Positions 26,801 to 47,059 of a DNA stretch of 64,000 nucleotides are shown here, piece by piece; within the stretch, counting starts at the first letter, position 1, and each line of letters begins with the position of its first letter. A program made the translations under genes and the position numbers. Origin of the DNA: an uncultured Clostridia bacterium (GTDB lineage: Bacteria > Bacillota > Clostridia > Christensenellales > UBA3700); NCBI GenBank assembly GCA_947175555.1, contig CAMWNK010000003.1, positions 4,540-68,539 on the forward strand, given 5' to 3'. The notes under the pieces were generated by a model. The model had not been told where the DNA came from and made no database searches. It saw only the letters and a list, made by a program, of their open reading frames with translations.

Positions 26801-29800
26801 TTCTAAACGTGCTTCCCTCAACAACGGGGTTGGTGGAGTTGTACGCATATACCTTAATGCCGTAATCGACAACGGACTCTCCGGTACCGGAAGAGGTATC
26901 GTCGCCCGCAGTGGTGTCGTCAGGATTGGTATTCGCGCCGCTCTCATCGCCGATAATCATATTGATTATGTTATCGAGCAGTCCGCCCAATGTATTCATT
27001 ATACCGAGGTTGGGCACGCTAATGGTTACGGGGAAGGTACCGTCAGGTACGAATCCGCGTATCAAGCTCTGCATAGACGATGCGTACAGATTATCTCCGA
27101 GGTCAACCGTTACCGTGATGCCGATTGCACTTGCATTGATAACAAACCATCCCTTGGCGAGCTTAACCGTAAGCGAATCGTCGGGCGAGATGTATATGTA
27201 TGCAAGAGGCAACGTGCTACCGGCGCCCTTGGTATTGTACTCGGCGGTATCCATACCTATCAAGGTAACGAGCAATCCGCCTCTCTGTACTTGGAGCGAA
27301 CCGTTAAGATTTTCCGTGATAGTACGGTCCTCGTTAAGCGCCTCAACGCTGATACGCAGCGACGCAGGATAACCGAACGTATACGCGTTGTCCGCAGTGT
27401 AATTGTAGTATGCAATGCTCTCTACAGACGCGTTAGCCAAGTCTATCGACAGATTGATTCCGCTGCTGGCAATTAAAGACATCGCAAGCTGCGTACCGCT
27501 GTTCTGCTCGACGTTGAGGTCTATAAAGTTCATCGAAGGTATGACGAGGTTGCTGTAGTCGCTGCCGTCGTTGATATGCAAGTCAAGCTCGGCATTGACC
27601 GTAACGTTATCGATACGCAGCGACGCCGCTATATCGCCGCTCAGTATTCCGAGCAATACGGATACGTCTACGTCAAGTCCCAACTCTACGCCCAGCAGAT
27701 CTGCTACTATCGTATCGATTACCGAAGAAGTAGCATTGACAAGCAACGACGAATTCTCAAGCGAAAGCACGCCGAGCAGCTTAGTAACGATATAGCCGAT
27801 ATCCATATCCTGAACGCTCTCGTCCTTAGCCATAGTCTGCAACTCGTCTACATCCATAGTCGCGCCGCCTACGATGACACTGCCGAGGTCTATCTCTGCG
27901 TATTCGCCGAGGAGCGCCTTAATCAACACGCCGAAGTTAATGCCTTCGCCCGCGTCTACACCGAGAGCGCTGTCTATAGTGTCGTCCAACGTATGCGACA
28001 GGTTGTCGAGCAACGTGTAAAGCGTGCCCGTAAGATTGTTAATCATCCTGTTGGACGTCATCTTGATATTGAACAAGCCAAGTCCCTGCAACGCTACATA
28101 GAAGGAACGGTCTTTCAGGTAGAAGCCGAGCAACGTCTTGGTGTTATTGCCCTCGTAGTAGTTGAGCTCAGCCTTAAGAGTCGTGCCCTGCGCGTTAATA
28201 CCCGTAACCATCTGCGTGGTGCTGTTGCGGGTATAGTCGAGGTGCCACTCGAGATTGAGCGTCATGCCCATATCGCGTATGCCCTTGACGTCAAGTCTAA
28301 TGGGCGCGCCTATAGGCGACGTACCGTTGATGGCGTTGAACACAGTATTTATCATATCCGCCATATTGATGACGGTCTGCGTCGCGGACAAATCGAGCTT
28401 AAGTCCAAGACCTACGTCTTGCAGATAATTGAATATCAACATCCTGACAGTCGTAGCGTAATCGCCGCTGAAGTACGAGTTAGCCTTGCTGTCTATGATA
28501 TTGCTCAGTCTGTTGTAATCGCTGTCGCCGCCGCCTATAATGATGTCGTCGTACGATATCGACGCGCTGATATTGAAGTCGGACTTGCCGCCAACCTCGA
28601 CGTGCGCGCTATAGATGTCGGGCAACATATTGCCGTCTACGTCATAGCCTCTGACTATCACGTCATAAGAGCCTGCGTGATTGAGCGTTACGCTGTGCAC
28701 GGTTCCGTTAAGTCCGTCATACACTGCGCTCTTGACAATCGTTCCGTTTACTCTCTCGCAGATATCCAATCCGTATGTATGAGCATTGCTCATCGCATTC
28801 CAGTATATCAACCTGCCGTCGGAAGTAACGCCTATCTGTCCAAGGACCTTACCGACGCTGTTATTAAGATTGCCGCTTTCGTCAACGGTGAACATCACCT
28901 GTACGAACTTACCTGTAGACGTTCCGTTGCCTGCGGTAACGGTAACGAGATACCAACCGGCATCAAGCGGCAACGAGCTCAGCACCGAAGTGCCTGTCGC
29001 GCTCTTTGTTTCGGTCGCATTGGGCGCGCCGCTGACCGACAAGTCGGCGAAGTAATCTACCCTTACAGTATAATTGCTTGCGTTGTCGATAGCAGACCAT
29101 GTGTACGACAGTGCGCCGGAAGAAACCGTCGCGGATACCGTTCCGCTTGTCTCGTTGGCATTGACTACCGCGCCCGCCGTATTGGCATTCTGCATCAGAT
29201 CGCCCACTATATCGAGACTGTATCTCTTGAGCGTACGAACCGTCGTATTGACGACCTCGACTCCGCTTGCGTTGATTACAGAGAAGTTGTACTCGCCAAG
29301 CGCATTCATAACGTAGCTTACATCGAGCTTACCGCTGTAATCGGCAATCAGCGTATATTCTTTTACGCCGACAAGGCTGCCTTCGTTGGTGTGCGTAACC
29401 TTTACGGTATACGCCGCACCGATATCCATGCCCTTCAAGTGCGCGCCGTAGACGTCTATACTGTCTATATACCCGCCGCCGATATCGCCGGAAGTCGTTA
29501 CGCGCTCCACGTAGGTCTTAAGTCCGACAGCAGCTTCAATATCAAGCGCGCTGAGGTCAAATGCACCGAGCTTGACGCCAAACGCATCGAGTATCGCCGC
29601 CACAGCATCGAGCTGGACTGCTATACCAAGCTGATCGGCCTTTGCGATTATCTCTATTACAGCCATAGGCACAAGTTTATTGCCGTTAGCCTTGATAGAG
29701 TTGGCTATTACCGTATATCCGATAATGTTGCCGTACGTATCGTACGCGCAAAGCTCGATATTGTAAGTTCCGGAATAGTCAACATTGTATATATTGACGA

Positions 29801-32800
29801 AATTGCCATTCACCAACAGATCGTTTATGGTGTATCCTGCCGCACTTGCAGAACTCTTGCCTACTGCGATGTAATCCACGCTCATACCCGAAGAGGATAT
29901 ATTGTTGCGCGAGTAGTAAGGCAGTACGCTATACTTAACAGCTCCGTCGAAGTTATCCCAGCTGATTATATAGTTGCCGCTACCTGCCGACGCGCCTACT
30001 TTAGGTATGAAGTTGGCATTGATTGCTCCATAGCTGTTGGCTGCGCCTCTTGCTACAAGAGCATAGCTGTCTACGGCAGGAGTTTCGGGCTCTTCGGCCT
30101 CTTTAACATTGCCGTAGCAGTTGACTACGATATAATAACCGTAATAGTCGTCCGCGCTGTTTGCATTACCGATTGAAGGCGCGGGAGCGCTCAATCCCGA
30201 TGCGAACATCGTCTGATATCTGCCCATTGCGCTGATAGCAGCCGTAAACAACGGAGTGGTATCTATCTCTACGGAAATCTCGGTGCCGGGCTTAATGCCG
30301 TCGCCGTTGATACCGAGAGTATCGTATCCCTCGACTCTGCCTGCGCCTACGACAGTAGCCTTGCCTGTCTCGACAGCATTCGACATAGGAATTCTTGCGC
30401 CTGTGCCCGTGGACACGAGATAAATCTCATACGCCACTACGCCTTCGAGAGCAAGCCAGCTTGCACGAGTCTTGTTGAGTCCGATATACTCGAGTTTTAC
30501 GGTGTCAAGCACCTGCAATCCCTTATCCTGAGTATCCTTTATTATATCTTCTGCCTCATGAGCCGTTACGTCGGCGTGAGCGGACAGATCGATATCGGAG
30601 GTGCTCTCCGCAACGACTCTGCGCGCGGGCCTTCCGTCGGATAAGGTATAGTCGAAGTATGCCGTAATGCTTACTCTCATGCGGTTGACTACTTTATCGC
30701 GAGTAAGCAGGTAGCTTGTATCTACGACATTGTTGCCATTTAAGAACTCGCTGCCCTTTATGCTTACTATCTCTGCATTATTGTCGGCGTTGACTACGGT
30801 GAAGTCATATTTAATCTGCTCTCCGCCGAACTCTCTGGCTTCCCAAGACAATATCATGTTGCCTCGATCGTCTGCCTCGTAGCTTACCTCGGGCTTATAC
30901 TGACCGGTAATCTTAGCTGCCAAGTCGTATATCTCGTTGATTATCATCCTATCGAAGTTATACTCCGCCCTGAGTACGGGAAGCGGTATGCCGAGGATGC
31001 TGAATCCGGACAAATCGAGGTATATATACGAGTTGCCGTTGGAATTGGACCTACCGAACACGCTGATGATAGACTCGCCTGCGTCGATACGGAACTCGCC
31101 GTAATTCTTGCCGCCAACGTTGACTGCGGGGAATATTATATCCTTACCCGCTTTTATGTCGAGCAACAGCAAGCTGTCGTTGTAGGCATTGGGCGAAATC
31201 CTCGCGCTCAACTCCAAGGTGAGCGTAATCTCGGTATTCTGATTGAACGTCCAATACAGGTGCGTATCGCCGAGTATATCCAATCCAAAGCTCTTGATAA
31301 GCTCTGCAAGGTCATAAGTACCCGCGTTGAACGCTACGGTTATATCTACCGCAAGAGAGGACGTCGACAATGCGCTGAATATAGCATTGGCTATTCTTCC
31401 CGCAGGATCGCCTACGCCGAGGTCTACTACGGTAACATTGCCTATTGCATTCAACGACTTCTGAATAACAGTGTCGGGATCGGATATACCCGTGGTGCTG
31501 TCTATGCTGTACAGCTTAGGCGACATGCCGAGTCCCAGCGTCGCGCCGAGGACGAGATTGTTAACAACCGCTCCCGTCTCACCCTGCTTGAGGACGAGGT
31601 TGATCTTAGCCTCTGCGTTGCCGTTGAATATATCTATATTGGCATCAAGCGAATCGATAGGATCCGTATTAATGCTGATATCTTTAAGTACGGTAGAGAG
31701 CAACGTATCCAATATCTCGCTCGTAATGTCGAGTCTGATAATGGAATTGTGCAACGACAGGGCGTTAAGTATCGATGCGATAACGCCGTTGGTACCTCTG
31801 TTGCCTACGGCTATAAGTACGTCGTCTGCATTGTACGCCTCAACCTTTACATTGTAAGGCTTGCCGTAAACGGCTGCATCGGATACGAATTCGTACTCGT
31901 TAGCGCTCAAAGTTACCTGCGTCTCGCTGCCGTCGTCTGCGGGCATGGTCAACACGTACTTGACTGCGCCGTCCACCGCGCCCCACTTCAGAGTAGATAT
32001 TCTGCTACCGTCATTGTCGTAGGAATTAACCACGCGTACGCTTATTGCAGGCATGGTATCTCCGCCGAGCACGCTGTCGCCTATAGAAGGAGTATCTCCC
32101 GCTACATCGTCGTTACCGGTCTTGCTATCGGTCTTGGGATTGAGCAATCCGTCTATAATCTTGCTGATGTCTATCTCGATATCGCCGATGAGACCGTCAA
32201 TCAAACCGAACAGCTCTTCCTGCAAAGATACGATGTACTCGAGATTGCGTATTTCGTATGCTCTCAGACCTATAGCGCGCATATCCACTACCAACTTGTT
32301 GTTGTAGATATACAGGGCAAACAGCACATCCTTATTATTTCCGCCGATTACAGAGCTAAGCTGTATTACGATATTGGTATCGGCAGGGCTGTTCTTGTCT
32401 ACGTTCAACATTATATCGAGCGCGACGGTTGTGGCATCCGTGCTCAAACGCAAGTCGAGCGCATCGGTAAGCTCGCTGACGGATATTCCCGTAGAGCCGA
32501 GCAACAAGTTGCCCACCATTACAGACAATACCTCGGATACGCTGAAGCCATCCACCTCGCTGAAGTCGAGCGCAATGCTCAGGCTGAGGTTATATATCTT
32601 ATCAAGCAATCCTGCAATGAGCTTGGAGCCGTACTCTTCCTTAGCCTTATCTATATCGATATCGCTAAGTATCTCGTCAATCTCTTCGGGCACTTTGTTC
32701 ATGTCGTCGGGATTGAGCAATTTCTCTGTATGAAGTTTAAGCGTTACGTTGAGAGGATTATCTATAATTCCTACAACGCTCCAGCTGCCGCCGTTGGGCG

Positions 32801-35800
32801 CAAGCACAGCCTGCGTGAATATGCTGTCAAACTCCACGTGCGCGCTATTAGTATCGCTCTTGGCTGTAGCGACCGTACTACCCGTAGCGTTCTTAATAGT
32901 CAACTCGTAACCGTTAGCCGCATCGATAGCATCCCAAGTGAACGTTACGCCCTGCGCATCGTCGTCTATAACGTAGCCGACGTTGTTGCACGCCACGTTG
33001 ACGGGTGTAAAGTCGGTTCCGAACAAGTCGCCTTGCAGCTTGAGCGTAAGCGCTTCTTTAGCCTGCCACTCGCCCACCAATCTGAGATCGAACAATCCGA
33101 GGATATCGGTTATCGATGCTATAGTAGAGTTGCCGGAGAGGAAGCTGGACAGCAGCGACGCAACGGCCTTAGTCGTAACTTCTACCTGCAACTTATCCGA
33201 AGAAATACCGAGCATGATAAGATGTCTCATATCAAGCGTATCGATATCGTCGGCAAGACTTACCCTGCGCTCTTGCGCGCTTTCGCCGCAGACCTTGCTG
33301 TCCTTAGCGATTTCCGCGCCCGTAGCGTCGAGAGCCGTAACTTCCACCATGTAGTGTCTGTCGGTACCGACAAGGGACGTAATATCCGCTCTCGTCGCGC
33401 CGGCTTGAACGGTTACGAATCCTGCGCTCGTCCAAGACATGCTGTCTGCAGCGTATACAGGTTTGAATACTTCTACCTTATACTCGTCGGACTTGCTGTA
33501 GTTATTCCACAATGCATAGGTGTTGCCGTCTGCATTTCCTTCCACGTTGACCGACAGTCCTTTGCCAAGTATCGAGAAATCGAAGTCCTTGAACAGATTG
33601 TCAATCATATCGGTAAGCACCTGGTGTACGTCTATATCGAAGGTATAGCAAGGCATCTGAATACCGAGCAACGTGATATTGCTCAAGTCGACGAAAGCCT
33701 TACCGTCCTGATAATACAATCCAAGCAACGTACCTGCGTTGATGACGCCTATAGTCGTACCGTCAGCCTCGTTAAGCGACAATCCGCTGCTGGAGAGCTC
33801 GAGTACGAACTTGGTATCCTCCGCGTTTACGCCGAGACTGAAGAGCAACTTAAGCTCTATAGTAAATCTCAAGTCATCGGTAAGAGTCCATACGATACCC
33901 GACTCATCCAATCCCTCGACGTTAAGATTGAGCTTTTCGAGCAGATTGTTGATAAGCGAGCTGATATTATACGAGCCCCTTGCTATGAATATATCAAGCG
34001 AAGCCTCGAGTCTGATGACCGAGAGCAGTCCTTCTACAAACTGCTGTATGCTTGCGCCGTTTATCTCATTGATAGAAGGTATCTCGGGCGCGATGGTATA
34101 GTCGCCGAACTCGCCGAACTCCACCAAAATTCCGTTATCCTTCATTGCCTCGACGGCTTTATCTCTGCCATCGCCGCCTGTGGTAAGTGTAAGACCTATT
34201 ACCGCAGTATTTACGCTATCGAATATAGCAGTTACTCTATAGCGCAATTCCTTGCTCAACAGCCAAGGGTAAGCAGTAGCGTCTACGCTGTAGCTTGCTC
34301 TGTTGCCGCTGACAGTGATATCGAAATCGTGTACCTGCACGGTATCTATCTTATCCTTGCCGTTGATATCGGTAATATCGATTTCATAATAATCGGCATC
34401 GGCTACGACATCCCATCCAAGCTCTACGGAAGCAGTATCCTTGGTCAGCGTAATATTATCGGCTATGACAGATCTCTCTCCGTCGCTTACGGTAAAGTCG
34501 AGATTGCCTATACCGTCGAAGAGGTCGATATCGAGCACAACACTTGCCCAGTCGAAGTTGATGCCAAGCGTACCTGCGAGCAACTTGTTGATAGTCGCCG
34601 CGGTTGCGGTAAGGCTTATTCTGTCATTCTTAATCTTAACCATACTCAGTATGCTCTTGAGCACGCTGAAGTTGGTATAACCTCCGTTGATGACCAAGCC
34701 GTCTTCGTTATATACAGGCTCTACGGAATCCGCGCCGTACTTACGTACCGCCTCTACTACTAAATAGTAATATCCCGACTGCAAGACTCCGTCGAAAGGC
34801 GACATAGAATCTTTAATCAATCCTATCTTATTAAGAGCTTCTGTATTGAACGTAACGCTCGTGCCTCTTATGGTATTGCAGATATCCAGTCCTTCGGGCA
34901 TGAATTCGGCTTCCCTAATGAGGTTGGTCTTGTTTGCGAGATCGTATCCCGAGTACAGCATGAGTCTGTATCTCATAGCCGTAGGTACGCTATCCCACGA
35001 GAACGTCGTCGTACCGGCGTTGGCATCCGTGCTCACTCTTACGGCAATGCTGTGCGTACCCGCAGGCAAGTTGCCCTTTTCGGCAGAGCTGTCGAGGCTG
35101 ACTGTCTCATCGCTCTGAGCGGGAGTCTTATCGACGAGCCCGTAAAGCATGTCGAGGAGTCCGTCCATGTCGGTAGCGTCGCGCAATCCCTTGATGGCGT
35201 TGTTAAGCGTATCGAACAAGCCTTGGAACAACTGAGCGCCCTCGATAGCATATCTTCCCAGCGCAATTCCCGTCGCGTCGATGATGACCTTACCTTGATG
35301 CAGATATATGCCGAGTAAGTTGCTCTTTCCGCCGCGCATATCGTTGAGAGCGATAGCGATAACGGTATTGTCGACAGAGGACAAATCTATACCGATATTG
35401 AGTGCAAGTTGCAGGTCGAGACCGGACAACTCAAGCATTATATCCTCGGTAATGCGCATATCCTTGATCTGGTCAATCTGCGCAAATACGGCGTTGAGCA
35501 CATTTCTGAGGTTGAGCGCGGTATCGCCGGTAACCTTGATGTCCAATGTCGCAGACAGATTGAGCATCTTATCAAGCAAGCCGTCTACGATATTGCTATA
35601 TGCCATATCCTTCTTCTGAGCAAGAATATTCCATACAGCGTCGTCTGCAAGCGACTGCTTAAACGCATCGGCGTTAGCACCGTTGTAGATATCGAATACG
35701 CTCAGCGCTATCTCGCCCGAAGCGTTAGTGCCGCCGTATGCCTCGCCGAGATTGCTCTCGAAGCTGAGCGAGAGCCAATCTTGATTGGGCTTGAGCGTGA

Positions 35801-38800: not shown

Positions 38801-41800
38801 CCATATTGCTCAAATCAATCGCAATTCCGTCAAACGAATTAACTCTGCCCGTGAGGTCGGTAGTAAGAGCGGTAAGCTCGGCATTAGTCATCGTATTGAT
38901 AGACAATCCCAACGACAGCGTAATAGCCTTGTCTGCATTATCCTTAAGGCTTACATTAATCTGAGCCTCTCCGTTGAATATATCGATGTCTCCGTCAAGT
39001 TCGATGTTGAGGGAGATGGAGAAGAATTGGTTGAGCAATCCTTTAATCATCTCGCTCGTAGCATACAGCTTAACTACGGAGTCGTTAAGAGCTACCATAT
39101 CGATAATAGCAGCTATCAAAGACGAGGTATCTATCCTCATACCCGCCTTGGCAGCATTATCGGATGCTCCGTTATCGGCATAAGCTGCTACGTTGCTTTG
39201 CTGACTGCCGATGCCGAGCAAGCCGTTGAGCGTCTCTTCTATATCGATTTCGATATTACCGATTAAGCCGTCGAGCATACTCTTGATATTGGCGGTAAGC
39301 GGGGTGCGGCTATCCGTAACTTTAATTACGCCTGCGCCTATTCCCGACAGGTCGAGATATACGTCCCCGTCTTTAACTACCAGAGCTATCAGCTCTCTGC
39401 CGATATAATTAAGCTGCAAAAGCATCGCTACGTTTTCGAAATCAGAATACGAGCCGCTTGTGGTCAGCTTAAGCTCAAGCAACTTATTACCGCTATTATT
39501 ATTGATAATAGTATCCAAGTTGAGCGAAGACAAATCTATCTTGTCCCCGATAAACATATTGAGTACGTCAATGATGTCGAAGTCCTGCTCCGCCGCCAAA
39601 TCGATATACAAGCTGAACGAGGTATTGAACAGCGAATCGAGCAATCCCGATATCAGCTTGCTGCCTGCGTTATCGGCGGAAGCAATGAATGCGGCATATT
39701 TATCACCGATATTGAGGTTCTTGACAGCCGCGCCGGAATCCATATACAGCTTAAGCGAAAGCTCTAAAGTAGAGTCGCTGCCGACGTATCCCTCGGGCTT
39801 AATCAAGTCGCCTACAACCTTAAGCAATATTCCGGTAACGCCGTCTATATTGCCTATCTCGCCGAATATGGTGAGGTCGAGGTCGGGCAAATCAATGTCG
39901 ATTTTATCGCCGAATACGAGTTTTATTATTGACAGCAACGCCTGAGATGTCATCATCAGACTCAGCTTATCCTTAGATATCATCAAGGATACGTCTTCGC
40001 CCTGAGCTCTCGCCATCTGCGCTTGACTGTCGTTGAGCTCGAAAGTAAGCTCGCCGTCGACTATCTTAGCGTAATAGATAGCGCTGGCATATGCGTTGCC
40101 CATAGTATCGAGTACGTTTAAGGTAACGTTGTCGCCGTCCTTCAATCCTGTTACGTCTATAGCAGCAGACGTCGTATTGCTTCCGAGTTTAACCTCTTCG
40201 GACGCGTCCGCTCCCATCCTATTAACTACATAGCTGTATTCCTCGGCGCCGATATAGCTGTTCCACTTGAGGTTAAGCACCGAAGTACCGCCTGTGGTTA
40301 CTACTGTGGAATTAGCAGTATCAATAACCAATCCGTTGGGATTGTACTGTCCGCCGATAAGCTGCTCCAACTTCAGTAGATAACCGTTAAGGAAACCGAA
40401 GAAATCAAAGCCTTCCGCCCTATACTTAGGCAGCGTCAAGCCGAGTATGCTGATACCCGACAAGTCTATTGACAATCCCTCGTAATTAAGGAATACGTCT
40501 ATTGAAGAATTGGGCTTGATAGCAACGTCATTGCCGAGCACAAGACCTTGAGGGAAACCTATGCTCAACATTATCTGCGGAGCCTTAAGCATACCCTGAG
40601 GGAGCTTCTTCTGCGCTTCTGTGCTCAGCTTCGTAACGTCGTCCAAAGCAATGGCAAGTTTCAGCTCAGCCTTGACAGACGTATCTTTCTCGAACGTCCA
40701 TACAGGTCCGGACTCAAGCATCTTGGAAATATTCTCGCCGAACATCGCAAACAGCTTGCTGAGGTTGTAACTACCCTTTACGAACTTGAGCTCAAACTCC
40801 GCGCCAAGCATTACACCTTCGTCAAAGATATCCCATATACCCTTAACGACGTTGCCGCCGTATGCAAAGTCTATCTCCGAATAGCCCGAATTGGGCGCGT
40901 TCATATCATCTACCTTTGCGGCAAGTTCTGCCGTATCGGTAGGAGAAATAGCTATGCCTGCGCTAATAGATATATTACCTGCATCCGAACTTACCGAATC
41001 ATAGATATTCAATACCAAATCCGCTGTACCGGTAAATATATTTACATCCTTAAGAGCTACGTCGAGTATCTCTATTCTGAAATTCTCGCCTACGAGATTG
41101 GCAAGTATGTCTCCGAATACCTTTCCGGTAATCTCAAGACCGATTATGCCGTTGTTGATAGTAAGTCCCGACAGCAGAGCATCTATTATGTTATAGCTGG
41201 TCCTCGATACTCCCTCGGTAATCTTATTGCCTTGCGCATCGTATGCAACTACAGTAATGGCATAGTTCTTGTACTCGTTATACCACTTGGTTGTAAGATT
41301 GCCGCCTGCGGACACTCTCGTCGTCCACTCTGCGGTAGCAGCGCCCGACAAGGAGAGAGATACTTCGTAATAGGCAGCTTTGTCCACGCTGCTCCAAGAT
41401 ACCGACTTGGCTACGCCGTTGATAGCGACGTCTATAGCCGCGGGACCTTGAGGCACATCGGACTCAACCTTAGTAACGACGAAAGTGAAGTTTTCTACCG
41501 TTATATCGGAGCTTGCGCCTACGCTCTCCTTAGGAATATATACTCTTACGTTATAAGATACGACGCCTGTTGCATCGGCAGTGAGCTTGAACACTCCGCC
41601 ATCTATTACGGCAGAAGTTACGTCTACTTCCTTGCTCTGTCCGTCTGCGCCTATCTGCTGCAATACATATCTATAATTGGCGTCGAATATGTTCCAAGAT
41701 ATATGCGTAGACTTGACGTCGTCGGTATACTCGGCTTTAGCATTGTAATCGAATGCGCTTGCCGTCGTAGTTGCGGATACGATTATCTTTTCGTTGCCGT

Positions 41801-44800
41801 CTTTAACCGTGCATACGTCGACTCTGTAATGGCTGTAGTTACTATCGCCATCAATGATAGTGAACCTGCCGTCGACGAAGATTGCAGCATCTTTATGCGT
41901 TACTCCCAATGCAATAGCATCGATGCGGTCAGCCGCGCCGCCCACGCCGGGCGTTACTCCATATACATTATAATATATATCGTTGGCGCTGCCGTATCTG
42001 TTCCACACTATCGTAGTGCCTATGTTATCGGACGTAACAGCCTTGAGCGATATGGATTTACTTACGTCGAGCAAGCTGTCGAGATTGAGCAATCCCTTAA
42101 GGCTTATGCTCTCGCTGAATCCGTCAAGCAAGTCCGTAAGCATACCCATAATGCCTGTATTGCTTACCTTATACTTGCCAAGTCCCAGTACGTTAAGGTC
42201 TATGTATGCGTTGTTTTGATCGAGATACAGGCTGAACAACACGTCCGCGCTGCCCGTCTCGCCGGCGATCAATTCAATGCCGAGTATAGGCTTATTGCTA
42301 TCGGACATAGCCAGCTTGATATTTAACGTAGCCTCGAGTGAATCCGTACCGATACTTCCGTCAAGCTCCAAGTCGGACAAACTCACGTTGACCTTTAAGG
42401 TGTCAAGCAAATAGTCAACGAGCTTAAGCACGTCGAGTTTTCCCTGCTTGAGCATTATTTTCATGGATATCTGAGTATCGAGCACAGCGTTAAGCAAGCC
42501 CTTGATTACGTAATCGTCGAGCTCTTGATTATTATAATCGCTGCCTATATCGTCTACTTTATCCTTTATTTCCTTCTTGCAACCTGCGATATTGACGTCT
42601 GCAAGGTCAATGCCCAAGGACAGCTTAAGATTGCTGTCTTTACCATCGACTGTAGAGAGCAGATTGGCCGTTACCTGCAAGGACAGCTGACCGTCTTTGT
42701 ATGCAATTTCTATCGGAATTTCGCCCTTTATATATTGATCTATATCGAATCCGAGATTTACGTTGAAACAGTTGAGCAACGTAAATACCGCTCCCACCGT
42801 TGCGGAGAGCTTAATCGCATCGCTGCCGAGATACAGAGCTATAGCGCCCGCATTGGATATAGCCTGCGAAGTAGAAAGCACGCCTGCGCTATCCTTGGTA
42901 ATCTCTGCAAGCGCGGCGGCAGCTTCCGCCTCGCCTTCGCCCGCGTTGGGATTACCCTTTATAGAGTTGATAACTCCGCTGAGGTCGAGACTCAAGTTGA
43001 GCTCGGGAAGCTGAGCAAGCAACGCCTCGATAGCAGAGCCTACGCCCATGTTATTGAGCTTGTAGATAGGCATCTCGAGGTTGAGTATCTTAAGGTTGGA
43101 CGCATCGAGATAGATAGCGTTCCTATATAAATATATACCTAATATAATACCTTCATCTATTAAAGCGGTTCCGCCGTTGGGATCTTCCAGATATACGGGC
43201 TCTCTTGCTACCAATTCGAGATAGAGAGCGCTGTCCATATCGGGATTGTTCTCGTCTATATACAGACCGAAGTCTAATCCAAGCGCAATCTTTGCGTTGG
43301 GATTGTCTATCTTAATCTTAATATCGCCCAGCGACAGTCCGAACATTGCCAGAAGCTGCGATATATTGTATTCTCCGCCGCTGAAAGACAAGTCGAGATT
43401 GATGCTGCCCTTAATGCCGCCGTTAAGCACGTTGTTGATGAGCTCGTTGATACTTGTCGTATATCCCGAGTCATCGCCTATGCACGAATCTATGTACGAC
43501 GCAAAATCTTGCTTTGCATCCGTGTCGCCGAACATAATAGGTTGCAGCAGCAAGAAATCGCTCAGACTCAGTCCGAGATTGATGCCGCCTATATTATGAT
43601 CTATACCTATAGATTCAAGGCCGTGTTTATTAACCTTAATAAAGAGTTTACCCTCGCCGATGTCGGGTATATTGATACCATCGGCAAGACCGGGGACAAA
43701 GCCGCCTATCGCCGTCAAAATGGAGTCGATAAGATTATTGTTGAGAGTAAGCGAAAGCTCGCCGCCGTTCGCCGAATTGGTAACGTTGACGTAGTCTCCC
43801 TCTATCTTCAATACCTTAAACAGCATGGAGATAAAGTTGCCCCATCCCGGAGAGATATATGTATTGCCCTCTTCGTCAACGGACAATGCCATTACGGAAT
43901 CGGACTGCGAAAGCAACTTGAGCGTGCTTTCCATACCCGACTTTTCTATCTTACCGTGATCGGTGCCGAACAGCTTATCTATTTCGCTTACCGCGCGCTG
44001 CTTGATTGCTCCGACAAGCTCGTTGAGATTAATGCCGCTTATCTTGATTCCCTTACCGCTCCACAGCTTGGCTATCTCGCCGTTGCCGCTTGCAGAAGGC
44101 AATTTATTAAGTATATTACCTATATTGATATACAGCGAGCCGTTCCTGTAATAGACGCCCAATATCGCATTCTCCGAGCCGTACTGACCTTTCTCAAACA
44201 GCTCTATTGCGATAAGATTGTTATCAACGTTAGGATCGGCCTGCTTGATGTCTATATCTATAATAGCATCGAGGCGGTAGCCGATATTGGCATCCAAAAG
44301 TATAAGACCTTGAGGAAGCGTACCGGGGACGAACGTATTGATCAGCGCGCCGACGTCTACGTTATTGCCCGAAGTGCTCAAGTCCAGATTGGCAGACAGC
44401 TTAATATTGCCCAAAGACCACGCTACGTAATCATTAATCTTATCGGGTACCAAAGAGAGATTGTCGCCGTCATATACGCCGTGCGTCAACTGCGCGGTAG
44501 TATATGTAAAGGTGGACTCTCCTACGGAATTATCTATGAGGTCGAGCTCGATATTGCCCGCAAGCTGACCTGCGGAGTTAATACCCGCTCTTACGATGAA
44601 GTCTACATCGGGGACGTTTTCCTTAAGCCAAGAAAGCAAAGGATTGAGATCTATGCTGCTAAGCAATCCGCCTACTACGCCGGATATGATAGGATTTTCC
44701 AACAGACCGGTAAGACCGTTGACCAACTTAAGGGGAGATATGGTGATGTCATAGTTGGTAATGCTTCCCGACGTGGTGGTATTGACAGACATAAACATGG

Positions 44801-45557
44801 AGAGAACGACGCTGTCTACAATACCGCTAATCATCGACTGCGAATTGAGTAAATCCTGTAAGAATGCAGGAAGTTTCTCGGCAACGCTGAGAAGATAATT
44901 CATGTTGAAATCTTCGATATATATGGGTTTAGCATCGGGATCCGAAGGATTAGTATCTATAAACAGGCCGCCGGCAGCTCCTTGGATATCCACAATATAT
45001 ATACCGAGCTTGGGCTTTCCGTCTTCAGTCAACTGGAAGCCCAAATCGTAATCAAGCGCGTTATCGCCGATTCCACGGCTCACGTTGGATACGAATTCAA
45101 GACCGTACTCCTTTCCGCCGGAAATACCCGATCCCTTGAGATGAGTATTGATATTATCTCCTTTGGATATACTGTTGAGTACAGTAAACAGCGGAGACAG
45201 TATGCCCGAGCTGCTACTGGAAGAACCACCTCTCCACTTAGCAGTCAGCTTGATAACTCCGCTGGCATTGGAAGGTACGGTATACTCATCGGTGTACGAC
45301 ATCAAAGACTCGTCGTCCCATCCGACTAACCTCTGCCCTCCGTTCTTAGGATTGTAATCCTTGAGATTGATGACGGTACCGGGGGTAACGTTGTTAAGCG
45401 TCATGACGCTGTTACCGCTCTCGAAAGTACCTGCGCCGGCATCAAAAACGACCGTTACGCCGGAGTCGCATGCAGACAGTATCAATGCACCGCTGAGCGC
45501 AACCAACATAACGAGTACCGTTACCAACGCTAAAAATTTGCCTTTCTTGCTTCCCAT
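23817..45557 (-). CDS. giant (7,246 aa) predicted lipoprotein: Sec/SPII signal, Listeria-Bacteroides (Flg_new)-like domain, seven ~0.6-1 k-aa super-repeats of an unassigned module interleaved with >=16 FN3-like domains, non-repeat C-terminal region with Ig-like domains
   Basis: - The ORF is uninterrupted over 21.7 kb, with GGGAGAG before the ATG.
- MGSKKGKFLALVTVLVMLVALSGALILSAC carries the lipobox LSAC.
- VVFDAGAGTF...GQRLVGWDDE...IKLTAKW is Flg_new-like.
- The LGIY...LYVDLS motif recurs 14 times.
- There are 16 W-x2-[VI]-x-GA-x-Y FN3-type signatures.
- The C-terminus has LPGNVTAHYANGTTESISVRWKS (Big-like).
- There is no C-terminal TM and no LPXTG. Confidence 0.9.
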   Translation of the reverse strand: MGSKKGKFLALVTVLVMLVALSGALILSACDSGVTVVFDAGAGTFESGNSVMTLNNVTPGTVINLKDYNPKNGGQRLVGWDDESLMSYTDEYTVPSNASGVIKLTAKWRGGSSSSSSGILSPLFTVLNSISKGDNINTHLKGSGISGGKEYGLEFVSNVSRGIGDNALDYDLGFQLTEDGKPKLGIYIVDIQGAAGGLFIDTNPSDPDAKPIYIEDFNMNYLLSVAEKLPAFLQDLLNSQSMISGIVDSVVLSMFMSVNTTTSGSITNYDITISPLKLVNGLTGLLENPIISGVVGGLLSSIDLNPLLSWLKENVPDVDFIVRAGINSAGQLAGNIELDLIDNSVGESTFTYTTAQLTHGVYDGDNLSLVPDKINDYVAWSLGNIKLSANLDLSTSGNNVDVGALINTFVPGTLPQGLILLDANIGYRLDAIIDIDIKQADPNVDNNLIAIELFEKGQYGSENAILGVYYRNGSLYINIGNILNKLPSASGNGEIAKLWSGKGIKISGINLNELVGAIKQRAVSEIDKLFGTDHGKIEKSGMESTLKLLSQSDSVMALSVDEEGNTYISPGWGNFISMLFKVLKIEGDYVNVTNSANGGELSLTLNNNLIDSILTAIGGFVPGLADGINIPDIGEGKLFIKVNKHGLESIGIDHNIGGINLGLSLSDFLLLQPIMFGDTDAKQDFASYIDSCIGDDSGYTTSINELINNVLNGGIKGSINLDLSFSGGEYNISQLLAMFGLSLGDIKIKIDNPNAKIALGLDFGLYIDENNPDMDSALYLELVAREPVYLEDPNGGTALIDEGIILGIYLYRNAIYLDASNLKILNLEMPIYKLNNMGVGSAIEALLAQLPELNLSLDLSGVINSIKGNPNAGEGEAEAAAALAEITKDSAGVLSTSQAISNAGAIALYLGSDAIKLSATVGAVFTLLNCFNVNLGFDIDQYIKGEIPIEIAYKDGQLSLQVTANLLSTVDGKDSNLKLSLGIDLADVNIAGCKKEIKDKVDDIGSDYNNQELDDYVIKGLLNAVLDTQISMKIMLKQGKLDVLKLVDYLLDTLKVNVSLSDLELDGSIGTDSLEATLNIKLAMSDSNKPILGIELIAGETGSADVLFSLYLDQNNAYIDLNVLGLGKYKVSNTGIMGMLTDLLDGFSESISLKGLLNLDSLLDVSKSISLKAVTSDNIGTTIVWNRYGSANDIYYNVYGVTPGVGGAADRIDAIALGVTHKDAAIFVDGRFTIIDGDSNYSHYRVDVCTVKDGNEKIIVSATTTASAFDYNAKAEYTDDVKSTHISWNIFDANYRYVLQQIGADGQSKEVDVTSAVIDGGVFKLTADATGVVSYNVRVYIPKESVGASSDITVENFTFVVTKVESDVPQGPAAIDVAINGVAKSVSWSSVDKAAYYEVSLSLSGAATAEWTTRVSAGGNLTTKWYNEYKNYAITVVAYDAQGNKITEGVSRTSYNIIDALLSGLTINNGIIGLEITGKVFGDILANLVGENFRIEILDVALKDVNIFTGTADLVLNIYDSVSSDAGNISISAGIAISPTDTAELAAKVDDMNAPNSGYSEIDFAYGGNVVKGIWDIFDEGVMLGAEFELKFVKGSYNLSKLFAMFGENISKMLESGPVWTFEKDTSVKAELKLAIALDDVTKLSTEAQKKLPQGMLKAPQIMLSIGFPQGLVLGNDVAIKPNSSIDVFLNYEGLSIDLSGISILGLTLPKYRAEGFDFFGFLNGYLLKLEQLIGGQYNPNGLVIDTANSTVVTTGGTSVLNLKWNSYIGAEEYSYVVNRMGADASEEVKLGSNTTSAAIDVTGLKDGDNVTLNVLDTMGNAYASAIYYAKIVDGELTFELNDSQAQMARAQGEDVSLMISKDKLSLMMTSQALLSIIKLVFGDKIDIDLPDLDLTIFGEIGNIDGVTGILLKVVGDLIKPEGYVGSDSTLELSLKLYMDSGAAVKNLNIGDKYAAFIASADNAGSKLISGLLDSLFNTSFSLYIDLAAEQDFDIIDVLNMFIGDKIDLSSLNLDTIINNNSGNKLLELKLTTSGSYSDFENVAMLLQLNYIGRELIALVVKDGDVYLDLSGIGAGVIKVTDSRTPLTANIKSMLDGLIGNIEIDIEETLNGLLGIGSQQSNVAAYADNGASDNAAKAGMRIDTSSLIAAIIDMVALNDSVVKLYATSEMIKGLLNQFFSISLNIELDGDIDIFNGEAQINVSLKDNADKAITLSLGLSINTMTNAELTALTTDLTGRVNSFDGIAIDLSNMVGSIADLLNGLDLSLELDVNFSGNNNVNLWDVLGVILTSVVKADGAINDVFEALGAEGFRWQLDTATDINLKLKLATDIKTVTVDSQEQIDEKNSSVVVGIIAGKDLTIGYDVSDSNREVIIKEGDGIYLIIKGGKLYIDLSAVHILGLTLPILRADNFNVMSYLSSIVGDIKQAVDKVIGTDDTVTDDNSGVVTQNNSAMALANNTDGSIVIGQDITFNIGIKAVMSLLNEMGLIDLTALNLDWDIVATTGVQNGLLKIAIEHNGAATPVIGFNAALTLGVKLQGDAEQSADKERQDMLAMAKNADSRYADSTSKVVDAILNKVLNSTIKLSISAHSDADKFNISRLLSQLIGMLATGSQGLDSQKAFNIDVSDLDRLELTITLNGKVDDLSALSAMIRIDSVYKNYLGNDVNNKIIALYVDSGDLYADLSALLHNVNIIKVSNSAVMNILSDTLNKLLSGIDFDLNTIINIAPKAASAASNVALAPAATAESNSLDIAELIKSVAKIVRLHNSSIALEAGTDTIDSLLYSLMGVHLDVVGVDGAIYLINGKAELNANIYDYDGKALTVGLGLSIAENGIDETTTLADAIQHAQSTAVELDFSSGKTLAQTVLDVLGGMSLQLDVKLQLPEGVFGIGDLLTGFGINIADANAFELIISGGNMRLDASLIAKAAFDYDNHNNTAIMLEVVMNSDAVFGAVDGQDNIVFHGGDRILGIYIKGSELYVDLSSLTLLGIELPVYYTANFNIQGFINYVLNKLIGGLDSMIFGEFAVNAEYSDTETNLVWNKVDGADAYVVNVNGNKVAMLLADSEVNGKFSYTLDKADLTDVYTVEIIPMVKKTVEGNDNYVAMGGRTGRYTNAFDIYTSYGENGRAIFAWDRISGAQYYTVSVNGVKYIDTEDTSVAIDNLVGGEVIDVTPYKKSGETACAVNDYIGRVTYKVSQAAISTVAGINDLGVNELFLMGISRDQINIKLSLDAIQAILQALNLDGALGGYDAVIDLTLKPNQDWLSLSFESNLGEAYGGTNASGEIALSVFDIYNGANADAFKQSLADDAVWNILAQKKDMAYSNIVDGLLDKMLNLSATLDIKVTGDTALNLRNVLNAVFAQIDQIKDMRITEDIMLELSGLDLQLALNIGIDLSSVDNTVIAIALNDMRGGKSNLLGIYLHQGKVIIDATGIALGRYAIEGAQLFQGLFDTLNNAIKGLRDATDMDGLLDMLYGLVDKTPAQSDETVSLDSSAEKGNLPAGTHSIAVRVSTDANAGTTTFSWDSVPTAMRYRLMLYSGYDLANKTNLIREAEFMPEGLDICNTIRGTSVTFNTEALNKIGLIKDSMSPFDGVLQSGYYYLVVEAVRKYGADSVEPVYNEDGLVINGGYTNFSVLKSILSMVKIKNDRISLTATAATINKLLAGTLGINFDWASVVLDIDLFDGIGNLDFTVSDGERSVIADNITLTKDTASVELGWDVVADADYYEIDITDINGKDKIDTVQVHDFDITVSGNRASYSVDATAYPWLLSKELRYRVTAIFDSVNTAVIGLTLTTGGDGRDKAVEAMKDNGILVEFGEFGDYTIAPEIPSINEINGASIQQFVEGLLSVIRLEASLDIFIARGSYNISSLINNLLEKLNLNVEGLDESGIVWTLTDDLRFTIELKLLFSLGVNAEDTKFVLELSSSGLSLNEADGTTIGVINAGTLLGLYYQDGKAFVDLSNITLLGIQMPCYTFDIDVHQVLTDMIDNLFKDFDFSILGKGLSVNVEGNADGNTYALWNNYSKSDEYKVEVFKPVYAADSMSWTSAGFVTVQAGATRADITSLVGTDRHYMVEVTALDATGAEIAKDSKVCGESAQERRVSLADDIDTLDMRHLIMLGISSDKLQVEVTTKAVASLLSSFLSGNSTIASITDILGLFDLRLVGEWQAKEALTLKLQGDLFGTDFTPVNVACNNVGYVIDDDAQGVTFTWDAIDAANGYELTIKNATGSTVATAKSDTNSAHVEFDSIFTQAVLAPNGGSWSVVGIIDNPLNVTLKLHTEKLLNPDDMNKVPEEIDEILSDIDIDKAKEEYGSKLIAGLLDKIYNLSLSIALDFSEVDGFSVSEVLSVMVGNLLLGSTGISVSELTDALDLRLSTDATTVALDIMLNVDKNSPADTNIVIQLSSVIGGNNKDVLFALYIYNNKLVVDMRAIGLRAYEIRNLEYIVSLQEELFGLIDGLIGDIEIDISKIIDGLLNPKTDSKTGNDDVAGDTPSIGDSVLGGDTMPAISVRVVNSYDNDGSRISTLKWGAVDGAVKYVLTMPADDGSETQVTLSANEYEFVSDAAVYGKPYNVKVEAYNADDVLIAVGNRGTNGVIASILNALSLHNSIIRLDITSEILDTLLSTVLKDISINTDPIDSLDANIDIFNGNAEAKINLVLKQGETGAVVNNLVLGATLGLGMSPKLYSIDSTTGISDPDTVIQKSLNAIGNVTVVDLGVGDPAGRIANAIFSALSTSSLAVDITVAFNAGTYDLAELIKSFGLDILGDTHLYWTFNQNTEITLTLELSARISPNAYNDSLLLLDIKAGKDIIFPAVNVGGKNYGEFRIDAGESIISVFGRSNSNGNSYIYLDLSGFSILGIPLPVLRAEYNFDRMIINEIYDLAAKITGQYKPEVSYEADDRGNMILSWEAREFGGEQIKYDFTVVNADNNAEIVSIKGSEFLNGNNVVDTSYLLTRDKVVNRMRVSITAYFDYTLSDGRPARRVVAESTSDIDLSAHADVTAHEAEDIIKDTQDKGLQVLDTVKLEYIGLNKTRASWLALEGVVAYEIYLVSTGTGARIPMSNAVETGKATVVGAGRVEGYDTLGINGDGIKPGTEISVEIDTTPLFTAAISAMGRYQTMFASGLSAPAPSIGNANSADDYYGYYIVVNCYGNVKEAEEPETPAVDSYALVARGAANSYGAINANFIPKVGASAGSGNYIISWDNFDGAVKYSVLPYYSRNNISSSGMSVDYIAVGKSSASAAGYTINDLLVNGNFVNIYNVDYSGTYNIELCAYDTYGNIIGYTVIANSIKANGNKLVPMAVIEIIAKADQLGIAVQLDAVAAILDAFGVKLGAFDLSALDIEAAVGLKTYVERVTTSGDIGGGYIDSIDVYGAHLKGMDIGAAYTVKVTHTNEGSLVGVKEYTLIADYSGKLDVSYVMNALGEYNFSVINASGVEVVNTTVRTLKRYSLDIVGDLMQNANTAGAVVNANETSGTVSATVSSGALSYTWSAIDNASNYTVRVDYFADLSVSGAPNATETKSATGTSVLSSLPLDAGWYLVTVTAGNGTSTGKFVQVMFTVDESGNLNNSVGKVLGQIGVTSDGRLIYWNAMSNAHTYGLDICERVNGTIVKSAVYDGLNGTVHSVTLNHAGSYDVIVRGYDVDGNMLPDIYSAHVEVGGKSDFNISASISYDDIIIGGGDSDYNRLSNIIDSKANSYFSGDYATTVRMLIFNYLQDVGLGLKLDLSATQTVINMADMINTVFNAINGTSPIGAPIRLDVKGIRDMGMTLNLEWHLDYTRNSTTQMVTGINAQGTTLKAELNYYEGNNTKTLLGFYLKDRSFYVALQGLGLFNIKMTSNRMINNLTGTLYTLLDNLSHTLDDTIDSALGVDAGEGINFGVLIKALLGEYAEIDLGSVIVGGATMDVDELQTMAKDESVQDMDIGYIVTKLLGVLSLENSSLLVNATSSVIDTIVADLLGVELGLDVDVSVLLGILSGDIAASLRIDNVTVNAELDLHINDGSDYSNLVIPSMNFIDLNVEQNSGTQLAMSLIASSGINLSIDLANASVESIAYYNYTADNAYTFGYPASLRISVEALNEDRTITENLNGSLQVQRGGLLVTLIGMDTAEYNTKGAGSTLPLAYIYISPDDSLTVKLAKGWFVINASAIGITVTVDLGDNLYASSMQSLIRGFVPDGTFPVTISVPNLGIMNTLGGLLDNIINMIIGDESGANTNPDDTTAGDDTSSGTGESVVDYGIKVYAYNSTNPVVEGSTFRIVHNAATNADGVAFDGYNLRVMRSDGYVLLDTTYPASATTSSGNYGYNVNFNWYEDYRIVVEGYMNKTGFDKVFGELDFWALLGGNRKGSNAATLPTGGAYPTAEAWTEDDFGITASLSGTGNFNLSVDFDTYYLNKLIDDVMDLIFGANTILDLSSMGLRHNYLAHTWWDRTSRSSTWLNTMDLGGNDLRLGMQYDPTSTLDSLAVQIVPLLADALELININIDVNVGPAIKVKLNGPAIREADDSLKWHDTMSNLNRIFMHLLPFAVWNTAKLNVSLVDGTIANISFDGEDLGLAVRDENGRVLTHEVQTFYGKYNSGQSRDQYYYDTGRTDDFTYSNLSAMGGVKKLTSNGSTKTSTVVRNGKSYTAYGYTVTYNAAGVAGSNTGGLQYSGATTNTAGTSGSRMNMNFTYVRTGSAIVNRSTQSGSGFNTGSDSSLWGKPNGSTFVVGQGDVAPFHTKIDIYNGSASVGSSSTTTDHTAGIVSWGGLPAYIEYDPLSMGAPSAAAPLIISRYFASGLTARYQQGSNFARGQITYAINGGTLNSTNLATALSSSADEITVVATATFGGSIGSKSLNIVIHRNRSTIVSIDKVQMHYFDSLPQYVVVTTSEGKRKKYDVTTDRNKAGDENKVLLTDYDPAAVSAAQGATINAKLTFADGTISNLLEIEYEDSTLSLENINELDLYSFNNIDDVVNAIDRIKVTYADGDAVISDNMVLGNGGSGSTMQIYSTKAGRWIALNSWANGVLDIKGDTIYIPASVSQNASDWGSNRLSQSTTIVINIATKLPEYITVRDGEADTIVVNPYEHYMSLVNGDDSLAALPGNVTAHYANGTTESISVRWKSTDGSYVRSNSIITGWNTMGAEGQLYVENDEVIYQKFHWVYGRDELSNKIINYRMESGRVVGMAFDLDGDGIYESATPDSTARRQLNAEVEFSGGYKMILPVAIDTIGNRLVGYIGYDVAAYRANSLNICDYDGYSFKQAFIITKDVRSLV
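26950..45100 (-). repeat. in-frame protein-level super-repeat region of the 7,246-aa gene (diverged, not identical at DNA level)
   Basis: Flavour-a motif copies lie at about 44941-45020, 43081-43160, 40441-40500, 38335-38425, 36600-36680, 33640-33735 and 30960-31035. Flavour-b copies lie at about 44101-44175, 42181-42245, 39320-39400, 37470-37560, 35235-35325, 32245-32330 and 28050-28135. The two flavours alternate strictly. Confidence 0.7.
45468..45557 (-). other. lipoprotein signal peptide of the 7,246-aa protein (Cys30 lipidation site)
   Basis: K-rich n-region, hydrophobic core LALVTVLVMLVALSGALI and lipobox L-S-A-C, with the Cys codon at 45468-45470. Confidence 0.75.
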
Positions 45558-45607
45558 AATTTTCTCTCCCTACGATGTAAGCAATCAGGTCGTGCCTGTT
45601 TTAAGTT

Positions 45608-45636
45608 ATTATAATAATATACACGCGCATTGTCAA
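45608..45636 (-). promoter_or_regulatory. consensus sigma-A promoter of the 7,246-aa gene
   Basis: The minus strand reads TTGACA (45636-45631), a 17-nt spacer, then TATAAT (45613-45608). The predicted 5' UTR is about 45 nt and ends in GGGAGAG-N6-ATG. Confidence 0.55.
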
Positions 45637-46753
45637 TACCATAGCAAAACTAAATAAATACTCACAATATTTCTAAAATTGGCTGATTTTCCTTAACATT
45701 TTTTCCCATATCGACACATTTTAAGAAAATTCCGACCATGACTTTAAGGCAAATCCAACAAGATTTTTAATGTAAAAATTATGTAAAATCGTAATTTAGC
45801 GTGATTTTTCAGAAGTTTTTGTTCTATAGTTTGATTTTTGCAAGCAGCTCGCACTGATTTGCATTTTCAAATATCCGCATCGATATCTGCTCTAAAACGC
45901 AGCATGAAAATAAAACTTGCAGACACGAAATCGCCGATTTCACTATACATAGCACAGCCATTTATTTTCCATTTTATCATTATAAGCGCGTCAAAGCATT
46001 TTGCTCATCTGAAAAGTAAGGTATAGTCGATAAGTTGTTAATCAGACGATAAATTTCAGTTATGATCAAGGAGCTTACTATCCGCTCTTCACTATTCGGA
46101 AATAATTCATATATCCAAATGCTTAAAGAGTGATGATTTCCTTTACAAGCGGATAATTACTACATGCAATATATCTTTTCCGTCTACAACGTATCACTAT
46201 AGCCTAAAGTTATAGTTGATTGATTACTGCATTATTGATTATCAGCTATTGAAAATTGTGCGATACAATCGATAACTAAATAGACATTACAGTATCGTCC
46301 TATGACCGATAGTTTTTTGCATAAATCGCGTTAGGCTCAAGCAATATAGTATCAGATTAGTGCGAAACATAATTAACTGATAAGTCATAGGCAATCACAT
46401 GCTAAGCAGCAGAAAGTATAATTATTGCTATATAGAAAACCGCCAAAATGATATCGTAAAATATGTAAAAGTGCACAAAATAGGCATATATGATTAGCAT
46501 ATTTTCCCAGTTGATTATTTCCAATATTTTCCTTGAATATGTCGATAATGCACAAAATATACATATAAATTTTATATCATTATCACATACAGTATACAGG
46601 CTGCTTGGCAAAAGCGGATAACATATATTTTGACAATCAAGCATTGCTTATTATGCCCATAATTCTCGCCGCCAAATAAGTAAAAATCTATGCCGTGATT
46701 ATAATCAGTAAAATGCAATATACTAATGTCATACAAGGAGGTATTCATATAAA

Positions 46754-46978
46754 ATGGAACACAACTTAAACGGCAAAGGCTACTTTGGAATGGCATGGCT
46801 ACTGAACTTGATATTGGCTATAATACCCGTATCCAATATTATATTAGGTATAGTAATAAGAGCTATGCGTCGCAACTATCTCGGCGCGGTGCTCAACTTG
46901 ATACTTGCGCCTGTATTCTACGTGATAGACCTTATTACGATACTCTTCACCAATGACTTAAAATTGCTTGCAAGATAA
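46754..46978 (+). CDS. small (74 aa) two-TM membrane protein, function unknown
   Basis: AGGAGG lies 12 nt upstream of the ATG. There are two hydrophobic segments (WLLNLILAIIPVSNIILGIVI and AVLNLILAPVFYVIDLITILF). A terminator follows. Confidence 0.55.
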   Translation: MEHNLNGKGYFGMAWLLNLILAIIPVSNIILGIVIRAMRRNYLGAVLNLILAPVFYVIDLITILFTNDLKLLAR

Positions 46979-46998
46979 ATAAAGTAAACATTATCCTA

Positions 46999-47026: not shown

Positions 47027-47059
47027 ACACTCATTTTACAAAATACTACATCTAAAAAT

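Follow-up and report, generated by a model that had tools for sequence, protein, structure and literature searches.

The 64,000-nt window analysed here comes from an uncultured Clostridia bacterium (Christensenellales; contig CAMWNK010000003.1 of GenBank assembly GCA_947175555.1, positions 4,540 to 68,539; all nucleotide positions below are those of the window) and contains the gene for a giant lipoprotein of 7,246 aa. About 4,000 of these residues are accounted for by A/B modules. By profile comparison, the basic unit is ~300 aa long and exists in two mutually homologous flavours, A and B, with a B-A pair forming a ~600-aa super-repeat that occurs seven times. The A/B module matches no described domain family or solved fold in the libraries searched (Pfam, NCBIfam, PDB and the viral folds of BFVD). 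The protein is probably an N-terminally lipid-anchored, highly acidic fibrillar surface protein, in which a stalk of A/B modules and fibronectin type III (FN3)-like domains would present a C-terminal region. Giant repeat surface proteins are a known kind; what is new here is the module, the alternating register and the inverted anchoring.

A second contig (JAIDXL010000061.1, NCBI assembly GCA_029058825.1), which terminates within the giant lipoprotein gene, shares 33.4 kb with the window at 100% identity. The N-terminus of the protein (MGSKKGKFLALVTVLVMLVALSGALILSAC|DSG) fits the lipobox rule [LVI][ASTVI][GAS]C, and by this criterion it is a predicted bacterial lipoprotein, i.e. a substrate of Lgt and LspA. 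The signal peptide is the sole stretch of transmembrane-strength hydrophobicity in all 7,246 residues. Cysteine makes up 0.2% of the protein and aspartate 8.4%, and the net charge is -429; the low cysteine content and the charge are compatible with an extracellular protein of an anaerobe.

Two alternating flavours of one unit

A first-pass annotation of the window, made from the letters alone, had described one short motif that recurs 14 times in two strictly alternating flavours. We found all 14 copies at the places given: the a-type at aa ~185, 805, 1690, 2385, 2966, 3944 and 4845, and the b-type at aa ~465, 1107, 2056, 2680, 3414, 4412 and 5809. The a-to-a period, put at ~1.75 to 2.9 kb, measured 1.74-2.96 kb. 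The motif as written down works as a consensus but not as a search pattern: its literal form matches 3 copies and a loosened form 8 (with counts of 0 and 0.02, respectively, in 1,000 shuffles of the protein), and recovery of all 14 needs profiles.

A self-BLAST of the whole protein returned the identity match alone, and we used 250-aa chunks instead. This gave 61 off-diagonal high-scoring segment pairs with 22-46% identity and E values down to 3e-17. A hidden Markov model (HMM) of the super-repeat, built from two periods, matches every other period, and with the inserted domains taken out, the seven super-repeats of ~600 aa can be aligned over their full length. The recurring sub-modules noticed in the first reading reappear as conserved columns of this alignment: L-x-N-S-x-I-x-L-x-A-T...LL, D-I-F-N-G, G-x-Y-N-L-S-x-L...FG and the core hairpin.

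Comparison of the B-half and A-half profiles of the super-repeat with hhalign covered 225 columns (97.5% probability, E 6.6e-12). The two halves are homologous, and the basic unit is therefore the one of ~300 aa in two flavours. When each half was given an HMM of its own, the units along the protein read B A B A B A B A B A B A B A'. In a Smith-Waterman matrix of the units, the A-A scores (87-247) and the B-B scores (44-212) both run above the A-B scores (37-123). The chance of strict alternation for seven B and six A units is 1/1716. The repeat and its alternation were thus reproduced by the unbiased chunk BLAST, by the HMMs and by the pairwise matrix. We add two elements to the original description: a degenerate 15th unit (A8') after B7, and a short a1 core before B1. 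The resulting map is as follows (all features on the (-) strand, from the promoter to the C-terminus).

45608..45636 (-), putative sigma-70-type promoter by consensus match (perfect TTGACA-17-TATAAT), ~50 nt upstream of the start codon
23817..45557 (-), whole open reading frame (ORF) of the 7,246-aa giant lipoprotein, a single intact reading frame
45468..45557 (-), signal peptide and lipobox L-S-A-C (Cys30), read from the sequence
44859..45467 (-), N-terminal region: weak Listeria-Bacteroides-repeat-like domain (Flg_new, E 0.025, under the Pfam cutoff), then the short a1 core (aa ~175-225, motif by reading)
43869..44858 (-), unit B1, aa 234-563 (B-half HMM, 258 bits)
42993..43868 (-), unit A2, aa 564-855 (A-half HMM, 280 bits)
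42018..42989 (-), unit B2, aa 857-1180 (A/B-half HMMs, as for all units below unless stated)
41235..42017 (-), three FN3/Ig-like domains, W motifs at aa 1185, 1288 and 1388
40347..41234 (-), unit A3, aa 1442-1737
40056..40325 (-), one FN3/Ig-like domain, W at aa 1765
39165..40055 (-), unit B3, aa 1835-2131
38250..39164 (-), unit A4, aa 2132-2436 (in the structural model)
37326..38240 (-), unit B4, aa 2440-2744 (in the structural model)
36492..37334 (-), unit A5, aa 2742-3022 (in the structural model)
36012..36491 (-), two FN3/Ig-like domains, W at aa 3038 and 3130
35082..36011 (-), unit B5, aa 3183-3492
34707..35060 (-), one FN3/Ig-like domain, W at aa 3521
33567..34706 (-), unit A6, aa 3618-3705 and 3790-3997, with an FN3/Ig-like insert at aa 3706-3789 (two A-half HMM matches, positions 7-98 and 104-288)
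33303..33560 (-), one FN3/Ig-like domain, W at aa 4017 (sequence reading and alignment)
32085..33302 (-), unit B6, aa 4086-4190 and 4262-4491, with an FN3/Ig-like insert at aa 4191-4261
31830..32045 (-), one FN3/Ig-like domain, W at aa 4525
30888..31829 (-), unit A7, aa 4577-4890
27942..30887 (-), run of FN3/Ig-like domains (W at aa 4906, 5034, 5200, 5487 and 5586) together with unit B7
within 27942..30887 (-), B7 head (aa 5301-5350) and B7 body (aa 5622-5872), with inserted domains in between
26958..27821 (-), degenerate terminal A-type unit A8', aa ~5913-6200 (weak A-half match; LENSS/hairpin sub-module aligned)
23820..26960 (-), C-terminal ~1,050 aa, conserved family-wide: signature FD[PT]Yx2NKLIDD...NYLx3WxR and a partial Big_4

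Searches of the N-terminal region against Pfam and PDB gave nothing informative. For the C-terminal 1,047 aa there was no PDB sequence match, and Pfam gave the partial Big_4 alone. This match (PF07532, aa ~7072) scored 28.5-30.4 bits against a gathering cutoff of 22.1 and spans only profile positions 14-39 of 59.

Relatives and conservation of the layout

The first-pass annotation had proposed an HMM search as a way to gauge taxonomic spread. Searched exhaustively with an HMM, 1.84 billion representative proteins yielded 63 relatives at E<=1e-3, 36 of them at E<=1e-30. By comparison, a word-indexed protein search (aa 1840-3030, and the 33-row alignment described below) returned zero matches, close orthologues included; we ascribe this to the word index, which may deal badly with repetitive proteins of such length, and not to an absence of relatives. 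The sole name on any family member is 'hypothetical protein [Clostridia bacterium]', and we found no description in the literature of a giant lipoprotein of Christensenellaceae or Firmicutes relevant to the family.

Nearly all complete members are 2,000-7,900 aa long, with an N-terminal lipobox at residue ~24-28. They follow a common plan of lipobox, N-terminal region, 4 to 14 A/B units and conserved C-terminal region, in which the ends are constant and the unit number varies. The smallest members consist of the lipobox, an N-terminal region with an a1-like core, B, A, B, an early A' and the C-terminal region. One annotated example, MDE6188862.1 (uncultured Clostridia, 'hypothetical protein'), is a true family member with the common lipobox, A/B modules and C-terminal signature; it differs in having B-A-B-A' only, in 2,583 aa, whereas the window protein has 14 units and FN3-like inserts. 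Other members show (B-A)n, A-only arrays (P0006, P0007 and P0009) or, in distant members of 6,500-7,900 aa, B-like matches only. The relatives that depart from alternation are P0006, P0007, P0009, P0026, P0030 and P0032, and P0041 and P0054-P0063; some relatives hold up to about nine A-type units in tandem. As these layouts read, strict A/B alternation is subfamily-specific.

A degenerate DNA pattern for the C-terminal signature FD[PT]Yx2NKL[IL]DD recovered 18 loci in 185,579 species genomes, where we calculate that about 0.1 would be expected by chance. All 18 lie in metagenome-assembled genomes (MAGs) of uncultured Christensenellaceae, Christensenella, Clostridia or Clostridiales. One of these, from Christensenella sp. 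MGBC120929 (L005), holds an orthologue of 82.5% identity, and the gene after it is an orthologue, at 75% identity, of the 4,477-aa neighbour.

At 30-33% identity, a more distant orthologue, P0001 (7,116 aa), is still collinear with the window protein. For all 13 testable units, the best Smith-Waterman match is the unit at the corresponding position of P0001 (scores of 232-594, versus <=247 for any paralogue), and A6 is split in P0001 in the same way. Hence the 14-unit order and at least one of the domain insertions go back to before the two lineages diverged, and they have survived in both. Most simply, the alternation would be the trace of duplication of a B-A pair. It may also persist because neighbours of low identity would tend less to misfold with one another. 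Low identity between neighbouring homologous domains is familiar from the Ig/FN3 super-repeats of titin, which share with the window protein a hierarchical super-repeat and two domain flavours in fixed alternating order. The domain family, organism and cellular location are unrelated, however, and any benefit of alternation in the window protein is presumptive.

The two flavours could also represent two specificities. Each A or B module might bind a glycan or a protein in the manner of cohesins in a scaffoldin, so that the repeats would give avidity and not length. The A-only or B-only arrays of related proteins would suit such a multivalent platform, as would the alpha-amylase and BspA-type leucine-rich-repeat (LRR) protein among the neighbouring genes. 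However, no match to cohesin, carbohydrate-binding module or lectin families or folds was found. The near-invariant columns of the units are Gly, Pro, Tyr and Leu, i.e. structural positions, with neither catalytic-type residues nor a polar pocket, and the paralogous units are 20-30% identical with no conserved surface motif. We consider a binding platform unlikely.

Fold searches, structural model and inserted domains

The first-pass annotation could place the modules in no known family, and this held against Pfam-A 2025, NCBIfam, PDB profiles, BFVD and a Foldseek search of PDB. With the whole 7,246-aa protein, Pfam-A 2025 and NCBIfam gave the partial Big_4 and a sub-threshold type IX secretion system (T9SS) match, and none for the A/B module. 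Six super-repeats and 33 divergent family fragments shared no Pfam family even at E<=1, and the A1 and A2 module profiles found nothing among PDB sequences.

For structure prediction with AlphaFold2 (AF2), we modelled aa 2132-3022 (A4-B4-A5) from a 33-row alignment, whose rows are collinear A-B-A segments of 20 family proteins and of paralogues. Only such rows aligned cleanly; with double super-repeats or mixed fragments, MAFFT shifted the register by one repeat or spread the fragments. With six paralogues only as the alignment, the model was unusable (predicted local distance difference test score, pLDDT, of 41); with the collinear rows, the mean pLDDT was 64.7 and the predicted template modelling score (pTM) 0.52. 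In the model, a ~300-aa unit contains about 15 strands and 6 helices, in line with the earlier suggestion of a beta-rich module with short helices. The best-predicted part (pLDDT 83-88) holds the core motif as a beta-hairpin, after which come the L-P strand and a long helix. The pTM value hints at a defined packing between units. A Foldseek search of the model against 350,542 PDB chains and BFVD gave nothing credible, the long alignments all having a probability of <=0.2 and a template modelling (TM) score of <=0.3. Cohesin/scaffoldin, beta-helix, Big/cadherin stalk, TULIP/START-like and porin-like folds were considered and rejected, with no profile support and with Foldseek probabilities that were not meaningful.

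These results bear on a speculation of the first-pass annotation, a resemblance to repeating beta-groove proteins of the AsmA/TamB/VPS13 kind. On such a reading, the A/B modules would join into a continuous amphipathic beta-groove, a conduit of the AsmA/TamB/YhdP/VPS13 type that moves lipids or hydrophobic molecules away from the membrane. The window protein resembles the repeating beta-groove proteins (AsmA, TamB, YhdP, VPS13 and ATG2) in its great length, its membrane anchor at one end and its very long arrays of beta-rich units with amphipathic strands and an alternating hydrophobic pattern. The pTM of 0.52 suggests that the units pack as one body, and Foldseek did return LptDE, porins, fatty-acid-binding-type and helix-grip proteins, all at a probability of <=0.15. 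However, no Pfam family of the AsmA, AsmA_2, TamB (DUF490) or Chorein_N type was found in the whole protein, the six super-repeats (E<=1) or the 33 divergent fragments (E<=1), and none in NCBIfam. Nor was there a credible PDB fold match, although the PDB chains searched presumably include solved structures of the AsmA/TamB/VPS13 type. Every unit contains about 6 helices; globular domains lie inside and between units, where they would be expected to break a continuous groove; and the anchor is a lipobox and not a transmembrane helix. The host clade would also have no outer membrane for a conduit to reach, as Christensenella minuta is listed among the Bacillota that lack the lipopolysaccharide and outer-membrane genes LpxABCD, LptA, OmpH and BamA (PMC11448272). 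Taken together, these points make a groove very improbable.

The domains inserted into the array were examined separately. The earlier count of at least 16 FN3-like domains agrees with the 16 signatures W-x2-3-[VI]-x-[GD]-A-x2-Y that we recorded, each of which marks a domain of ~90 aa. They had been described as lying between modules; this is so for groups of 0 to at least 3, but in three cases they lie within a unit (A6, B6 and B7). All three insertions fall in the homologous loop, past the D-I-F-x-G hairpin at HMM positions ~70-105. The FN3-like label itself is less secure. Pfam fn3 (PF00041) matched neither the pieces of the region at E<=1 nor 15 single domains at E<=5, but the domains carry a beta-sandwich signature (invariant W and Y, plus a Y-x-V-x-V strand, in their alignment). 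A profile of 15 of them had its best PDB match in 3mpc ('Fn3-like protein', E 0.009), followed by Hoc and a monobody (E 0.42) at E 0.15-0.4. An iterated HMM recovers 7 of the 16, so the inserted domains are very divergent. An FN3/Ig-like identity is plausible, if weakly supported.

A probable lipid-anchored fibre and the surroundings of its gene

The first-pass annotation had raised the possibility of a novel fibre, and a fibre-like structural role is, in our judgement, the most plausible reading and a probable one. In its host, a gut Christensenellales bacterium, the protein would be processed by signal peptidase II and tethered through Cys30 at the outer face of the single cytoplasmic membrane. 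Its other ~7,200 residues would make up a long, highly acidic, largely rigid stalk of fourteen ~300-aa alpha/beta modules, with at least 16 FN3/Ig-like beta-sandwich domains spliced between modules or into the one permissive module loop. The stalk would cross the wall and, well beyond it, display the conserved ~1,000-aa C-terminal region, which may mediate adhesion to other cells, mucus or particles. We infer surface exposure, fibre shape and adhesive function from features that fit a fibre: the anchor, the acidity and low cysteine content, the structural-type conserved residues, the FN3/Ig-like and Big_4 domains, the variable unit number and the conserved distal region. The hint of packing between units in the AF2 model, the conserved pairing with a second giant, Pfam-less envelope gene (below) and the behaviour of cultured Christensenella species, which flocculate and hold Methanobrevibacter smithii in their flocs (PMC7002349, which names no adhesin), would agree with this reading as well.

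Fibrillar adhesins and other giant repeat surface proteins, e.g. Ebh, SasG, SiiE and those of the LapA type, are the closest parallel. An envelope anchor and tandem stalk domains, by which fibrillar adhesins are recognised, are both present here (the lipobox; 14 A/B units and at least 16 FN3/Ig-like domains). As in those proteins, several thousand residues would be secreted and envelope-anchored, the long tandem array includes FN3/Ig-like domains, a distinct conserved region occupies the anchor-distal end, and the repeat number differs between species. The window protein differs in that its stalk unit is a ~300-aa alpha/beta module matching no known stalk domain, in its two strictly alternating flavours without a known adhesive domain, and in its N-terminal lipobox, where the others have a C-terminal LPXTG or a retention module of the type I secretion system (T1SS).

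Several points weigh against a fibrillar adhesin. At the distal end, no adhesive domain was recognised when the last 1,047 aa were compared with Pfam and PDB. Expression and surface display are predictions from sequence, and the supposed shape of the fibre draws on an AF2 model of medium confidence. Gram-positive fibrillar adhesins are usually anchored by sortase at the C-terminus, and the topology here is reversed. Lastly, a tie to the cultured, flocculating Christensenella strains is conjectural.

A more specific proposal starts from these flocs and the Christensenella-Methanobrevibacter partnership. Modules of a new fold, joined head to tail within one chain, might form a semi-rigid filament of >100 nm that serves Christensenellales as a cell-to-cell tether or conduit, e.g. 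by holding hydrogen-consuming methanogens in flocs, with the A/B register as a periodic binding or transport surface. We regard this as improbable.

Directly downstream of the lipoprotein gene lies a second giant ORF (10160-23593, (-); 4,477 aa), which has no Pfam match and no similarity to the 7,246-aa protein; a PDB search with it was uninformative. A signal anchor lies at its N-terminus, and a hydrophobic segment towards the C-terminus is followed by RRKKRE. Beyond RRKKRE, the frame continues into another lipoprotein-like signal (…IAVLIAVVCIVIAFTFVMVGC|KE, aa ~4310-4332), which gives the impression of an in-frame fusion to a small lipoprotein gene. The pair of giant genes is kept in Christensenella sp. 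MGBC120929.

This conserved pair of adjoining giant envelope genes would also suit an envelope scaffold or surface-layer component that lies along the cell and organises a thin wall or outer protein layer, possibly with the 4,477-aa neighbour. The extreme acidity can be taken as compatible with a cation-mediated lattice or wall binding, the perfect promoter consensus suggests strong expression, and the Christensenella envelope is atypical, being thin-walled and staining Gram-negative (PMC11448272). However, neither SLH, CWB nor any other wall-binding domain was found in Pfam or NCBIfam, and the unit number varies 3-fold or more between species, which suits a stalk that can be lengthened or shortened better than it suits a lattice. 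S-layer proteins are also usually far smaller. A scaffold is a tentative alternative, unlikely in our estimate.

The other surroundings of the gene are mixed. Between its promoter consensus and a divergent gene group lies ~1.5 kb of AT-rich DNA (45600-47100; GC ~0.40) with no ORF of >80 aa. The divergent group (47111-51309, (+)) consists of a small ORF, MarR-like by eye, and two ABC exporter genes (ABC_membrane plus ABC_tran). Beyond it, a stretch of lower GC (0.37-0.42) holds a phage-type integrase (51875-52840, (-)), the BspA-type LRR surface protein (54576-56393, (+)) and tRNA-Ala(GGC) (61692-61767, (-)), and may be an integrated element. Long ORFs of up to 1,167 aa also run on the strand opposite the giant gene (24159-44852, (+); e.g. 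31260-34763); these are most likely shadow ORFs that reflect its codon usage and not genes. At the other end of the window, a 433-aa protein (2698-3999, (+)) has two C-terminal DUF1508 repeats as its only Pfam match.

If the giant lipoprotein turned out to be ordinary structural padding, the value of these results would lie mainly in annotation. They define a clade-restricted family of giant lipoproteins whose main building block matches no described domain or solved fold, and they offer the A/B module to the databases as a new domain family. The protein also provides a naturally occurring super-repeat in which two flavours alternate strictly and which held its order while identity fell to ~30%, and one loop of its modules is a defined site that tolerates inserted domains. 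Of the gut taxa, Christensenellaceae have some of the most consistent links to host genetics and leanness, and the lipoprotein family is a candidate for the aggregation or adhesion apparatus of this Christensenellales clade.

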